Source: a phage. From it: a stretch of DNA of 64,000 bases. The stretch is from the NCBI GenBank assembly GCA_020241865.1, contig GCA_020241865.1_4709.1; one strand, written 5' to 3'. Under the pieces are notes generated by a model. That model was given only the letters and a program-made list of their open reading frames with translations. It did no database searches and had not been told where the DNA came from. A program made the translations under genes and the position numbers. Below are positions 24,860-48,439 of this stretch, piece by piece (position 1 is the stretch's first letter; each line of letters opens with the position of its first letter).

Positions 24860-24887
24860 AAAAAAAAAAGGTGGGGCGAACCCCACC
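24860..24887 (-). terminator. rho-independent terminator (hairpin followed by U10 on minus strand)
   Basis: plus strand A10 then GGTGGGG-CGAA-CCCCACC; on minus strand stem-loop followed by T10. Confidence 0.65.
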
Positions 24888-28968: not shown

Positions 28969-29064
28969 ATCCACTCCGATGCGGTAAATGTCTACTAGCT
29001 CTCATAATCTATTGAAGAAACTACCAGCTTACGCCAACTTAGATTAATCAGGAGTAACCATCCC

Positions 29065-29538
29065 ATGCCAGTTTCATCCAAACCAAGAAAAAAATCTGTA
29101 GGAAACCCTAAAGCTCAGGAAACAACAGCAATTCGTTGGGACGAGTTACGTGAACCTATCGAAAACTGCGAATTGTTATTAGGTACCCTGGGTGCAGCTA
29201 TTTACCAAGCGACGCAACCCTGTCGTTTACGATTAACCCAAAACAAACGTGATGAGTTCGTTGCGTTATCAACAAGCACGAATAAAGATCTGACCGAACT
29301 TCAAACCGAGTTGACGACGATCAAGAACTCCATCACGCCGATGTACGGTAAAGAAGTTGATGAACAAAGTATTCTGTTACAGTACAACTACGGGATGTCG
29401 TTAATGAACATCCTGGAACGCGCATCCGATATTCTGCGTCCTGACGTTGCACGCCTAAGCCAGCTGCGTGTCGAAGGGATGGAGAACCAGATCCGATTCG
29501 CTAACAGTGTTAAATCTCAAGGAGCCACCGAAGCATGA
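29065..29538 (+). CDS. hypothetical protein (157 aa)
   Basis: first gene of plus-strand unit diverging from 28975-29064; ATGA overlap with next gene. Confidence 0.7.
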   Translation: MPVSSKPRKKSVGNPKAQETTAIRWDELREPIENCELLLGTLGAAIYQATQPCRLRLTQNKRDEFVALSTSTNKDLTELQTELTTIKNSITPMYGKEVDEQSILLQYNYGMSLMNILERASDILRPDVARLSQLRVEGMENQIRFANSVKSQGATEA

Positions 29539-31199
29539 GCGAACAAGAAAAAGAAGTCGTGACGAATCAGGAAGCCGTTGAGCGTTCAGAGTCGTCCGTT
29601 GAAACAACGATTCCGGCAAGTTCCGAGCCTGTTGGTTCCACACAGCAGGAAAGTAAAGACGAAGTAGTGGCTCCAGAAGCAACCCGTGAAGAAGAACCAT
29701 CACATCCACCGCTGGTCGATTTCTCGAAGGCAACGATACGTTTCCAATGCGAAGACATTCGTCCTAAGAGTCCGAAGAAAACAAAACGTCAGCCGTTGGT
29801 GTTACCGCTGTATTCTCCACGTGTGCAGACAACGTATTACCGGGAATACATCAACGAAGCAATGGATACCGTGCAAGCCATTGTCGCTCAACGCGGTAAA
29901 CCGACAGACGAACAATTTGATAAATTCAGTAAAGCGGTGGTGCAATCGGTTGCTGATGGACAATATCATCCGCGTGGCCCAGCTCACGATCGCGCCTTGG
30001 AACGTAAGGGCAGTCAGTGGACTAACGTACCCGTAGACTCATCGGGTGTTGGTCGCGTTATTCCTGGCATTCCACAACCGAACCGTATCCCTGATGATGT
30101 CGAAGCGCCGCTGACAGGAACCGATGCGATCTATTTTGCCATCCGTAATACGAAATCAGGTGCGCCTGCGGTAATGCCGTTATGGCATAGCGGTATTAAG
30201 CTGCAGTTTAATCCGCCGTCAAATGAACGTGTTGCAATTATGCACGAACGTATTGCACGCGATAAAATCCTGGGTGGACGTGATAGTACCGGTTTCCTGT
30301 TTTCAGCAACCTCGATTATCACCATGAAGCACGCTATCGAATTAGCATTAGAATGCTGCTACATGGCCAACGTACCGAACCTGGATATCCAGCGTTTGAA
30401 AGACATTATTCCGGTTACCGATGTTCCAGCGTTATTGCTGAACGTGCTGGTAACCATGTACCCGTACGGATATCCTTACGTACAGACCTGCTATCAGAAT
30501 CCAGAAACCTGCGACTATCGTGTTGAAGATACCGTAAGCTTTGCGAAACTCTATCAAGTTGACAACAGCGCGATAACCAAACGTATGCGACAGATCATGA
30601 CCGAAGGTCCGGTCATGACGGATGAACTTTTGCGTGAGTATGCAAACGAACTGGGTGAAACAAACTCCCGTACGCTGGATCTGTCCGACAACGGTTCTGT
30701 TATCATTGAACTTGAAGTACCGAAGATTTCACGTCAGATCGCCATGGGCGAACGCTGGTTAAGCGATACCCTGGAAGATCTGCGTGATATTCTATCGCGT
30801 CCGTCAATGACCGAAGAAGAGCGTGATCGTGTTATTCGTGAACGTCAGTTCTATAGCTGGATGCGTCAGTATGATGCGTGGATCAAATCGATGCACGTGT
30901 CAGTAAACGGTACCATGCGTCGTGTAAGCGATGCAGATACGGCAACGGTATTAGCACAGCTGTCACGAGACAGCGACCTTCGTGAACGTTATATTGACGG
31001 GTTGATGCAATTCATCGGTGATTCGACGATTGCGCTCGCAGCGATGCCTGCCTGGAAATGTCCGAAATGTAATGCCGATATTGCTGACAATCTGCGTGAC
31101 CAGAAATACTACGATCTGATTGCTTTGGATGTACCCCAGCTTTTTTTTACCCTAAACTCCGTCCAATCTCTTCAGGAGGGGATGGACGCGGTATTCTAA
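29535..31199 (+). CDS. hypothetical protein (554 aa as annotated), probably continues by -1 shift at T8 run into 31262..31621 frame (predicted fusion ~695 aa)
   Basis: acidic N-terminus; zero frame stops 16 codons after T8 run at 31141-31148; -1 frame open from 31100 to 31621. Confidence 0.75.
   Translation: MSEQEKEVVTNQEAVERSESSVETTIPASSEPVGSTQQESKDEVVAPEATREEEPSHPPLVDFSKATIRFQCEDIRPKSPKKTKRQPLVLPLYSPRVQTTYYREYINEAMDTVQAIVAQRGKPTDEQFDKFSKAVVQSVADGQYHPRGPAHDRALERKGSQWTNVPVDSSGVGRVIPGIPQPNRIPDDVEAPLTGTDAIYFAIRNTKSGAPAVMPLWHSGIKLQFNPPSNERVAIMHERIARDKILGGRDSTGFLFSATSIITMKHAIELALECCYMANVPNLDIQRLKDIIPVTDVPALLLNVLVTMYPYGYPYVQTCYQNPETCDYRVEDTVSFAKLYQVDNSAITKRMRQIMTEGPVMTDELLREYANELGETNSRTLDLSDNGSVIIELEVPKISRQIAMGERWLSDTLEDLRDILSRPSMTEEERDRVIRERQFYSWMRQYDAWIKSMHVSVNGTMRRVSDADTATVLAQLSRDSDLRERYIDGLMQFIGDSTIALAAMPAWKCPKCNADIADNLRDQKYYDLIALDVPQLFFTLNSVQSLQEGMDAVF
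31141..31148 (+). other. T8 homopolymer: candidate -1 ribosomal frameshift or transcriptional slippage site (or homopolymer sequencing error)
   Basis: U UUU UUU heptamer in frame of 29535..31199; -1 frame continues to 31621. Confidence 0.45.
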
Positions 31200-31261
31200 T
31201 CGATCCGCGATACGGGTTACATGACGGACAACTTGTTCGTAATGATGAAAAAATCTGGGAA

Positions 31262-31621
31262 TTGCTGTTAGCGCGTAAAGGCGATGGTGGCATGAAGCTG
31301 AACATCGAAATGGGTATTGCGTACGATACCATGTTTGGCTTGTACGATCGTGTTAACGACTGGACGCCGTTGAAATGGGTGGCTCAGCACCCCGCTGAAG
31401 ATCCCTGGGACAGATTGGGGATTAAACCCTTAATCGAAGATTATGTCCGATTCGGTATTAAAGAGTTCATGACGTTGGATGCGTTTTTACAAGCACCGTA
31501 TCCTTACGCGCAAATGGTACTCAAAATCGCACAAGACGAACTGCGGAAACGTAGTGCGGTACTGGACGACGATGAGGACAAGTTACGACGAGAAGAAGAA
31601 CGTTTACGAAACGGAAAATAA
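31262..31621 (+). CDS. ORF probably expressed as C-terminal extension of 29535..31199 rather than independently
   Basis: track start is TTG with no RBS; first ATG (31292) has poor RBS; frame is open upstream through the T8 run. Confidence 0.45.
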   Translation: MLLARKGDGGMKLNIEMGIAYDTMFGLYDRVNDWTPLKWVAQHPAEDPWDRLGIKPLIEDYVRFGIKEFMTLDAFLQAPYPYAQMVLKIAQDELRKRSAVLDDDEDKLRREEERLRNGK

Positions 31622-31622
31622 A

Positions 31623-32132
31623 ATGGCGAGATTTACCAGTTTGATTGGGTTGGATATTTGGGAAACACCGGCTGACGTTCGGGTTATTCCTGTTAACACC
31701 GTCGGTGTGATGGGACGTGGTCTTGCCAAACAGGCAGCCGATCGTGTACCCGGTCTTCTTGAAGCGTACCGTAAGCAATGTCAAGATGGGTTTAAGGTGG
31801 GCGAAGTCGTGTCGTATCAACACGGTGATAACGATCAACTCACCTACGTGTTGTTTCCATCAAAATCGGATTGGCGTGAAAGAACACGACGCGAGTATAT
31901 CGTTAACGGTTTACTGGCGTTAAAAGCATGGTTACTGGAGCTTCAGTTCGAAAGAGACGGCTTCTCATATCGGCGTCCGGCTGAACCGCTGATCGTTGCA
32001 ATTCCTCCGGTTGGTTCTGGTTGCGGTAATATCGGTTACGGACAATCCGAAACAATCCAGCCTCAGTGGGTACGCGCACAAATCAAACAGTATCTTGCCA
32101 CCGTACCGAACGTTCATTTCTACTTGTTCTAA
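31623..32132 (+). CDS. macro-domain protein (ADP-ribose binding/hydrolase-like)
   Basis: N-terminal VIPVNTVGVMGRGLAKQAADRVPG and C-terminal IVAIPPVGSGCGNIGYG blocks resemble macro-domain signatures (cf. YmdB); ATG 31623 (MARFTSL). Confidence 0.65.
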   Translation: MARFTSLIGLDIWETPADVRVIPVNTVGVMGRGLAKQAADRVPGLLEAYRKQCQDGFKVGEVVSYQHGDNDQLTYVLFPSKSDWRERTRREYIVNGLLALKAWLLELQFERDGFSYRRPAEPLIVAIPPVGSGCGNIGYGQSETIQPQWVRAQIKQYLATVPNVHFYLF

Positions 32133-32143
32133 CGCAACGGTAA

Positions 32144-32186
32144 CATAACCCTCTCCCTTCCCTGCTGGGTTGGGAGAGGGCTTATG
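32144..32186. terminator. GC-rich palindromic hairpin (family member, reverse orientation) between convergent genes
   Basis: CATAACCCTCTCCCTTCCC-TGCT-GGGTTGGGAGAGGGCTTATG = reverse complement of the 1365 copy apart from loop. Confidence 0.6.
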
Positions 32187-32197
32187 CTGTTATGCTA

Positions 32198-32572
32198 TTA
32201 ATGTTCGTTCCAGATGGCATCTTCCGGTGGAACAATAGGATCTTTCTTCGGCATTGATGGCACTTCATGGCGATGTTTACGGAACTGCCTATCAATAACC
32301 TCACGAAGCCGGTACGCATCAACCCATGTTGATTTATTGAACAGCTCCAATGTCACAGTTAATCGTGTTCTTGACATTGAATAGCTTTTCTTTGCAATCA
32401 AATTGGGATAATTCAGTTGAGCGAACCACGCACGTATTTGTGCTTCGGTAAAAGCGATGCTGTAATAACTAAGTTTACCGTCATTAAAATCGTGCGCGTG
32501 GGTGTAACGTCCAGCGTAACGCCAGACAAGATGCACATTCAGATCGATCCATGGTGGGGTGGTATCAGCCAT
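32198..32572 (-). CDS. hypothetical protein (124 aa)
   Basis: ORF convergent with macro gene across GC hairpin. Confidence 0.6.
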   Translation of the reverse strand: MADTTPPWIDLNVHLVWRYAGRYTHAHDFNDGKLSYYSIAFTEAQIRAWFAQLNYPNLIAKKSYSMSRTRLTVTLELFNKSTWVDAYRLREVIDRQFRKHRHEVPSMPKKDPIVPPEDAIWNEH

Positions 32573-42039: not shown

Positions 42040-42093
42040 CATATTACCCCCCCCCCCCTCGCTTCGTCGAGGTAGGGGAGGATAACACTTTAT
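42040..42093 (-). terminator. degenerate family-like hairpin containing a C12 homopolymer
   Basis: CATATTA-C12-TCG-CTTCGT-CGAGGTAGGGGAGG...TTTATG downstream of 42090..43844 stop. Confidence 0.35.
42047..42058. repeat. C12 homopolymer tract (intergenic)
   Basis: 12 consecutive C between 41933 start and 42090 stop. Confidence 0.7.
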
Positions 42094-48382: not shown

Positions 48383-48439
48383 AAAAAAAAAACGAAAAAA
48401 TAGGAAAACGGTGTTCATCCTTTTTAGGGATGAACACCG
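48383..48439 (-). terminator. rho-independent terminator (12-bp stem followed by U-rich tract on minus strand)
   Basis: CGGTGTTCATCC-loop-GGATGAACACCG; plus strand preceded by A10 and A6 runs. Confidence 0.65.

Follow-up and report, generated by a model that had tools for sequence, protein, structure and literature searches.

A conserved T-run slip site in a jumbo-phage core gene: probable programmed −1 recoding in the phiKZ gp77/Goslar gp081 family

The locus and its reading frames

The subject of this study is a run of eight T's (T8) near the end of a 554-amino-acid (aa) open reading frame (ORF) in a 64,000-nucleotide (nt) stretch of phage DNA (GenBank assembly GCA_020241865.1, contig GCA_020241865.1_4709.1), referred to below as the window. 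Positions are those of the window. The region from 29000 to 32200 aligned over its full length, with 96.8% identity, to the genome of Escherichia phage vB_EcoM_Goslar, a nucleus-forming jumbo phage of 237 kb. The 554-aa ORF is the counterpart of Goslar gp081 and phiKZ gp77, and the ORF downstream of it is the counterpart of Goslar gp082, a homologue of phiKZ gp76.4; in phage 201phi2-1 the corresponding pair is gp136/gp135. Both Goslar proteins are recorded as "hypothetical protein". The first gene is listed as core gene cg18 (Goslar gp081, PhiKZ gp077, RAY gp267), also as "hypothetical protein" and without the mark "unique to chimallin-encoding phages" (Prichard et al. 2023; PMC10299810, Table S3). 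All 13 database records inspected, from 12 different phages, annotate two ORFs, with an arbitrary start for the second. The first ORF is named baseplate hub protein in the AgentSmith and MJ359 records, and neither record joins the two ORFs. The main features are as follows.

29535–31199, plus strand: zero-frame ORF, the predicted short isoform; 554 aa, 62.6 kDa; Goslar gp081, phiKZ gp77, Chimalliviridae core gene cg18
31100–31199, plus strand: 100-nt overlap of the open −1 frame with the coding zero frame
31141–31148, plus strand: T8 run, with heptamer T TTT TTT at 31142–31148 (P-site codon 31143–31145, A-site codon 31146–31148)
31148–31621, plus strand: −1 frame extension of 157 codons plus TAA, which includes Goslar gp082; joined to residues 1–538 it would complete a 695-aa long isoform

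The zero frame at 31137–31151 reads CAG CTT TTT TTT ACC, which places the heptamer in the X XXY YYZ phase. After the heptamer the zero frame has 16 sense codons before its TAA (31197–31199). The −1 frame has a TGA at 31097–31099 and is then open from 31100 to a TAA at 31619–31621, and the DNA from 31148 to 31199 can be read in two frames. A −1 shift on the heptamer would produce a fusion protein of 695 aa and 79.1 kDa with the junction ...QLFF/YPKLRPISSGG... (slash at the junction). An earlier interpretation made from the letters alone (the sequence-only reading) had reported the T8 tract with an in-phase heptamer U UUU UUU at 31142–31148 near the stop of the 554-aa ORF, a −1 frame closed until 31097–31099 and then open to 31621, and a fusion product of about 695 aa; rereading of the DNA agreed with it on each of these points. 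It had also stated that the downstream ORF has only a TTG start. The TTG at 31262 is indeed the first start codon in the −1 frame, but an ATG at 31292 had been overlooked. This ATG, the start of gp082 in the Goslar record, is preceded by a weak purine-rich stretch and could yield an independent 109-aa product. Such a product cannot explain the conserved residues encoded upstream of ATG 31292, which are described below.

The two predicted isoforms differ in peptides that distinguish them. The predicted tryptic junction peptide of the long form is YYDLIALDVPQLFFYPK, and the long-form peptides LRPISSGGDGR, GILIDPR and YGLHDGQLVR are all encoded upstream of any start codon. The C-terminal peptide particular to the short form is YYDLIALDVPQLFFTLNSVQSLQEGMDAVF.

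Conservation of the two-frame layout

We compared 42 distinct loci: the window and its relatives, phiKZ, 201phi2-1, PhiPA3-size and other IMG/VR contigs, Noxifer, Eowyn, Bacillus phage AgentSmith, LucasX, RP12, 2050HW, SPLA10, BONAISHI and MJ359. These loci came from Pseudomonas, Erwinia-like, Ralstonia, Xanthomonas, Vibrio, Klebsiella, Serratia, Salmonella and Bacillus phages and from metagenomes. Heptamers and codon usage were tallied for 36 of the 42 loci.

The sequence-only reading had proposed a comparison of orthologous loci for conserved two-frame organization, and the organization was found at every locus. The frame that ran past the zero-frame stop was the −1 frame in 42 of 42 loci, with an extension of 123–179 codons. 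No locus had a comparable extension in the +1 frame, which was mostly shut within a few dozen codons and was open for 86 at most. The overlap between the two frames was 46–361 nt long, and within it all 42 loci had a single T5–T8 run at the homologous position, phased TTT TTN. This layout was kept down to about 20% protein identity.

The heptamers in the 36 tallied loci were T TTT TTT (20 loci), T TTT TTC (7), G TTT TTT (5), G TTT TTC (3) and T TTT TTA (1). Thus 28 loci had the form T TTT TTN and 8 had the form G TTT TTY, in which the U_UU.Y tetramer is retained; in-phase T6–T8 runs were present in six further phages. The length of the run was T8 in 16 of the 42 loci, T7 in 14, and T5 or T6 in 12. 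Goslar, which was sequenced independently, has the identical T8. Four further relatives with 52–87% protein identity, one a contig of a Salmonella assembly (L007) and three from metagenomes, share the −1 layout and have the invariant block ACCCTAAACTCC after their T8.

A tblastn search with the fusion protein returned 158 phage records (Pseudomonas 69, Erwinia 25, Serratia 17, Ralstonia 13, Klebsiella 9, Vibrio 9, and others). For the majority, the N-terminal match stopped at residue 538, which is the slip site, and the match of phrog_4585 to the N-terminal part stopped at the same residue. The PHROGs database holds the two parts as separate families without known function. When the extension was used in a phmmer search, no in-frame fusion was found among 1.84 billion representative proteins; the 20 homologues were all 92–158 aa long. 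Among the BFVD predicted viral structures there were long matches of 686–687 aa, which are probably explained by an N-terminal extension and not by fusion, the phrog_8054 match covering profile positions 147–672 of 693. As judged from these comparisons, the two-frame arrangement is far beyond chance, and the putative slip site is an ancestral feature of the phiKZ gp77/Goslar gp081 family.

Selection on the slip site and on both frames

Codon usage at the slip site was compared with that in the remainder of the 36 ORFs. Outside the slip site, Phe was encoded by TTC 392 times and by TTT 222 times (36% TTT), whereas the P-site codon was TTT in 36 of 36 loci. None of the 36 ORFs contained a second in-frame TTT-TTY codon pair, or any run of six or more T's apart from the one at the slip site. 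Because the P-site codon is always TTT against 36% TTT elsewhere, these counts indicate that selection is at the nucleotide level and not just on the Phe-Phe residues.

The zero-frame codons that follow the slip site were also conserved. Leu was present at +2 in 36 of 36 loci, Arg or Lys at +6 in 29, and Ile, Leu or Val at +7 in 27. This tail forms a conserved C-terminal helix (TLNSVQSLQEGMDAVF), which is helical in the structural model described below. For the doubly read region (31148–31199) the mean pairwise identity was 0.32 for the zero-frame tail versus 0.22 for the −1 reading, which is poorly conserved and was modeled as a low-confidence linker of about 28 residues. Unequal conservation of the two readings is usual where two frames share DNA. 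Since the zero-frame tail is conserved as well as the extension, both products appear to be needed, and the pattern of a conserved zero-frame tail with a looser −1 linker argues for a fixed ratio of two isoforms.

The tail varied in length. In the clade with Serratia phage 2050HW, Salmonella phage SPLA10 and Klebsiella phage MJ359 (L052, L053 and L055) it had 37–44 codons versus 8–16; the predicted short isoform therefore has a longer private C terminus in these three phages. SPLA10 also has a G6 run within the overlap.

The −1 extension as a protein domain

The extension could be aligned over its whole length across the family and contained the motifs P-x-[FY]-G-[LY], AYD..[FY]G and HP.E. All seven of the fusion proteins tested matched phrog_12109. 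In the model, the linker of about 28 aa is followed by a helical domain of about 130 aa. Part of the extension lies in DNA that is annotated as noncoding:

31203–31261, plus strand: "intergenic" stretch, coding in the −1 frame; contains the PRYGL motif (31203–31230) and no ATG, GTG or TTG in the −1 frame

PRYGL is the window's version of the family motif P-x-[FY]-G-[LY] and lies upstream of every possible start. Across the family loci, the first possible start codon in the −1 frame was found anywhere from +24 to +303 nt past the slip site and was not conserved. In phiKZ, AgentSmith and three metagenome loci (L039–L041), a protein initiated at the first start would lack over half of the conserved domain.

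Base changes in this region were examined in two close relatives. The window and Goslar differ at only two positions in the "intergenic" stretch, 31222 and 31228, and both are synonymous third positions of −1-frame codons. In the 90 nt past the zero-frame stop, the window and L007 have 12 differences, distributed 4/0/8 over the first, second and third positions of the −1 codons. These result in three amino acid changes, all of them conservative, and the other two frames hold stops in the same 90 nt. The distribution of changes indicates that the extension is under purifying selection, including the part upstream of any start, and the alignments indicate that it is a real domain; with its possible starts placed as they are, it could hardly be made on its own.

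Downstream RNA structure

In the window, a predicted hairpin follows the heptamer:

31156–31192, plus strand: predicted RNA hairpin, candidate stimulator; 7-nt spacer, −16.7 kcal/mol

Its stability corresponded to z = −2.1 relative to shuffled sequences and placed it in the first percentile of windows of the same size in the gene. The clearest candidate stimulators in the family are in two related IMG/VR contigs, L032 and L036, which have perfect stems of 8 and 10 bp (ACTCAGCG/CGCTGAGT and CACTCAGCGA/TCGCTGAGTG) about 9 nt past T TTT TTC; the two stems differ in loop sequence. The site had no match in Rfam. In the 12 nt before each site, no consistent upstream Shine-Dalgarno-like element was seen by eye, no motif search having been run.

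Predicted fold of the 554-aa part

The zero-frame part and the extension were modeled separately. The AlphaFold2 model of the 554-aa part had a pTM (predicted template modeling score) of 0.66 and a pLDDT (predicted local distance difference test) of 85–93 in the core; the first ~100 residues were disordered. Comparison of this model with solved structures gave no meaningful match. When it was compared by Foldseek with the BFVD predicted structures, the best matches were members of the family itself. Next, with E values of 9e-5 to 4e-2, probabilities of 0.97–1.0 and TM scores (by target) of 0.45–0.66, came at least eight models whose annotation is T4-like baseplate hub assembly protein or hub subunit; both sides of the comparison were predicted. 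Models annotated as tail assembly chaperones gave far weaker matches (E 0.5–2.4).

Searches by sequence in Pfam, NCBIfam, PHROG annotations and PDB sequences were uninformative on function. None of seven family members had a match to any Pfam family at E <= 1, PF12322 (T4_baseplate) included; T4 gp26 and gp51 score 215 and 177 bits on the PF12322 profile. With hhalign, the probability for an alignment to gp26/gp51 was only 20–30%, and the alignment was limited to a strand plus CxxC, where a strand-plus-CPxC motif aligns. Four Cys residues (C319, C326, C509 and C512) were invariant in the alignment of seven fusion proteins. The idea that the −1 extension is the missing half of a second T4_baseplate-like domain was tried and rejected, the hhalign probability against the gp26 and gp51 alignments being below 1%.

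Virion data were consulted as well. The protein gp81 is unnamed in the main text of the Goslar virion paper, which presents a composite cryo-electron microscopy model of 28 different proteins. In the 201phi2-1 record, the virion mass spectrometry flag is on the neighbor gp138 and not on gp135 or gp136.

Discussion

The sequence at the T8 run is very probably a conserved programmed recoding site, an option that the sequence-only reading had named beside a miscall; recoding is now strongly supported by the layout in 42 of 42 loci, by the contrast in codon usage, and by an extension that lacks a conserved start of its own. The mechanism is likely to be programmed −1 ribosomal frameshifting, which we favor over transcriptional slippage. 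The 554-aa ORF and the ORF that follows it would then be one gene with two decodings. Most ribosomes would translate 29535–31199 and produce the 62.6-kDa protein with its short conserved terminal helix. A fraction would slip back one base, with tRNA-Phe in both the P and A sites on U UUU UUU, and would go on in the −1 frame to 31621, producing the 79.1-kDa protein; the hairpin at 31156–31192 may boost the efficiency of this step in the window phage. In the long form the terminal helix would be swapped for a flexible linker and the ~130-aa helical domain. Thus this core gene probably yields a short and a long protein.

Three observations led us to favor a ribosomal shift. First, the variants of the site fit the rules determined by experiment for −1 shifting in Escherichia coli, where H_HH.U_UU.Y heptamers are among the most efficient sites and the tetramers rank A_AA.G first, U_UU.C second and U_UU.U third (PMC4066793). 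The U_UU.Y tetramer is the part kept in the G TTT TTY variants. Second, the run is no longer than five or six T's at 12 of the 42 loci, which is short for a polymerase to slip on. Third, a hairpin is predicted 7 nt past the heptamer in the window.

Several points weigh against this reading. Strong downstream hairpins were predicted in only about 25% of the family loci, and a family-wide stimulatory structure was not significant overall by minimum free energy z-scores or by within-gene percentiles (median percentile 0.37, Kolmogorov-Smirnov p = 0.11). The G TTT TTY heptamers are noncanonical in that the P-site tRNA cannot fully re-pair. Polymerases, too, are prone to slip on runs of T7–T8. Conservation of Phe-Phe could account in part for the fixed phase of the run, and ATG 31292 could permit an independent 109-aa fragment in Goslar-like phages. 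The 695-aa trans-frame product is itself a prediction from DNA sequence.

The main rival, alone or in addition to frameshifting, is programmed transcriptional slippage, in which RNA polymerase would add one U while copying an A8 template, so that U9 mRNAs would encode the same 695-aa protein. The slipping enzyme would most likely be the phage's own non-virion RNA polymerase. The protein outcome is identical, and the lengths found in 30 loci (T8 in 16 and T7 in 14) are those at which bacterial and phage polymerases slip (PMC5009743). In addition, UUUUUUU is avoided in all three frames of E. coli genes, possibly on account of slippage (PMC4066793). The lack of a conserved downstream RNA structure in the family also speaks for slippage. 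Nevertheless, the T5 and T6 runs of 12 loci are too short for efficient slippage by known polymerases, and the two-frame layout of these loci is unchanged. A slippage site is usually an A/T homopolymer of 8–9 or more, of conserved length and in any phase; the T8 of the window is marginal by this measure, and the run is always in the phase required by the ribosomal heptamer. The site is also common to phages of Bacillus and Pseudomonas hosts, for which the shared denominator is the ribosome and tRNA-Phe, although the phages of these diverse hosts do share related polymerases. On balance we consider slippage as the explanation unlikely, though it deserves more weight than the alternatives that follow.

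A second alternative is that there are two separate genes, the downstream ORF being translated from ATG 31292, from TTG 31262, or by re-initiation after 31199, with the T-run incidental. All records examined annotate two ORFs, ATG 31292 has its weak purine-rich stretch, and in 201phi2-1 a TTG overlaps the upstream stop. Two genes would, however, leave unexplained the unconserved position of the start codons and the loss of over half of the domain in phiKZ, AgentSmith and L039–L041, the purifying selection on residues upstream of any start in the window, the −1 relation of the frames in 42 of 42 loci, and the retention of a TTT-rich run, against local codon usage, exactly where the −1 frame opens. 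We regard this arrangement as very improbable.

Homopolymers are the commonest place for indel errors and mutations, and the sequence-only reading had allowed for a miscall (a true T9 and a plain 695-aa ORF); this option, like a recent inactivating frameshift mutation, is ruled out by the identical T8 in independently sequenced Goslar, the T8 in the Salmonella-assembly and three metagenome contigs, the same −1 shift being needed at the 41 other loci, the lack of an in-frame homologue among the 1.84 billion representatives, and the conserved zero-frame tail.

Comparison with known recoded genes

In its logic the site is a classical programmed −1 recoding signal, and what it most resembles is the conserved tail assembly chaperone frameshift of long-tailed double-stranded DNA phages. 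As in lambda G/GT and P2 E/E+E′, the predicted −1 shift falls shortly before the upstream ORF ends (16 codons from its stop here), and the minor product would share its N-terminal part with the major one and carry an extra C-terminal domain of about 150 aa (157 here). P2 likewise shifts on a heptamer rich in T (T TTT TTG). As among the tail chaperones, the feature has persisted while the sequences diverged. Possible further likenesses are that the gp081 product is not among the proteins named for the Goslar virion model and that there are weak Foldseek matches to annotated tail assembly chaperones. The differences are also clear. The upstream part is 554 aa long, compared with ~100–150 aa in the chaperones, and there is no significant sequence or solved-structure match to them. 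The gene is beside genes for a virion RNA polymerase, a macro domain and a helicase and not between those for tail tube and tape measure, although gene position is a weak test for a G/GT pair in these jumbo phages, whose gene order is scattered.

The T4 proteins gp26 and gp51 (PF12322) form a second comparison. The literature calls them chaperones of hub assembly, and T4 needs gp51 to assemble but does not retain it in the particle (PMC3004832). By Foldseek, the predicted 554-aa part matches several predicted T4-like hub models, both families have two Cys pairs, and two database records label homologues "baseplate hub" or "baseplate hub assembly protein". T4 gene 26 (L049, NC_000866, 7803–8429, minus strand) also has two products, gp26 and an internal product gp26′ comprising the C-terminal 95 aa, but the second arises by internal initiation and not by frameshifting. 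In contrast to T4, which has two paralogous genes, there is one recoded gene here; its 554-aa protein is more than twice as long and has no Pfam match. Because of its large size, the wrong gene position and the lack of a PF12322 match, the 554/695-aa gene should not be filed as a member of either the G/GT or the gp26/gp51 family.

Other recoded genes share parts of the arrangement. In dnaX (tau/gamma) and in OrfAB of IS3/IS911, two tRNAs of the same kind slip on a homopolymeric heptamer that is in phase (A AAA AAG, compared with U UUU UUY in the phage family), and each gene gives two products in a fixed ratio; a downstream hairpin, as predicted in the window, is a further likeness. These genes differ in that well-defined conserved elements stimulate the shift, namely a Shine-Dalgarno-like sequence upstream and a stem-loop or pseudoknot downstream, whereas no conserved stimulator was found here. 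In dnaX, moreover, the shifted product is the shorter one. The T7 10A/10B pair has a −1 shift on a U-rich tRNA-Phe site near the end of the ORF, a minor longer form, and no strong known stimulator. Its slip site, G GUU UUC, resembles the G TTT TTC variant of the Noxifer-like members. T7 gene 10 differs in encoding a capsid protein with a short extension, in that its longer form is dispensable, and in not being known from a comparably wide group of phages.

Possible function and significance

A baseplate-hub or tail assembly chaperone of the T4 gp26/gp51 kind, whose two isoforms would work like G and GT of lambda, is our best lead to function, a tentative one that we do not put forward as a finding. 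Against it, the structural evidence is a Foldseek comparison between predicted models (E 1e-4 to 4e-2) made with a query of pTM 0.66, and the profile probability is 20–30%. The sequence-only reading had held that the size of the protein argues against a classical G/GT pair. This was reasonable by size and neighborhood; it may miss the point, given that the predicted fold resembles T4 gp26/gp51. A bolder and rather doubtful proposal is that in phiKZ gp77/Goslar gp081–gp082 the phiKZ-like jumbo myoviruses have the tail assembly chaperone frameshift that was missing from them. At 554/695 aa, the protein would be a giant relative of gp26/gp51, its isoforms would take the parts of G and GT when hub, tape measure and tube are built, and the slip site U UUU UUY would be older than the split between the Bacillus- and Pseudomonas-infecting lineages. 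If the link to gp26/gp51 is true, the tail-assembly frameshift rule would reach the phiKZ-like phages and the enigmatic T4 hub "catalysts" gp26 and gp51 would be tied to the universal chaperone-frameshift rule, with hints at their roles in T4; a core gene of nucleus-forming phages would also have its first function.

In the searchable literature we found no report of recoding in the phiKZ gp77/gp76.4 gene or at this site, and we rate it as a new, deeply conserved case of recoding in a jumbo-phage core gene. One recoded gene would correct the annotation of at least 158 phage genomes and would define a 79-kDa protein for which the collections searched contain no single sequence. As −1 recoding of noncanonical size on a U-run with natural heptamer variants, the family provides a comparative series for the study of tRNA-Phe slippage with and without stimulators. 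In these jumbo phages transcription takes place inside a protein-bounded nucleus and is carried out by unusual polymerases, and translation takes place outside it. The site could therefore serve as a simple natural reporter that separates transcriptional from translational recoding.

Neighboring genes and other features of the window

The gene neighbors are those for a virion RNA polymerase subunit, hypothetical proteins, a macro-domain protein and a helicase. The upstream gene (29065–29538; Goslar gp080/phiKZ gp78) overlaps the start of the 554-aa ORF by ATGA (29535–29538), and the macro-domain gene (Goslar gp083) overlaps the last 50 nt or so of the −1 extension (31572–31621). No promoter-like or terminator-like site was found between the 554-aa ORF and the downstream ORF. 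From gp080 to gp083 the genes appear to form a single, tightly coupled operon. In the protein cluster P0001 (561 aa, 355 member sequences), which stands for this gene in public metagenome collections, the start is seven codons upstream (29514–29534) of the ATG in the Goslar record; therefore, the true start of the 554-aa gene may differ from that ATG.

Only three homopolymers in the 64-kb window are longer than the T8 run: A10 at 24860–24869, C12 at 42047–42058 and A10 at 48383–48392. All three are intergenic. A GC-rich hairpin (ggtggggcgaaccccacc) directly adjoins the A10 at 24860, which resembles an intrinsic terminator on the minus strand.

The relative L007 (NCBI GCA_007261085.1, contig AAHLWB010000010.1, 180 kb) is a Goslar-like jumbo phage in an assembly of Salmonella enterica serovar Panama. 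Its counterpart of the 554-aa gene has 87% protein identity to that of the window, and its gene order and T8 site are unchanged. Its presence suggests that the Salmonella Panama isolate carried, or was contaminated by, a jumbo phage.

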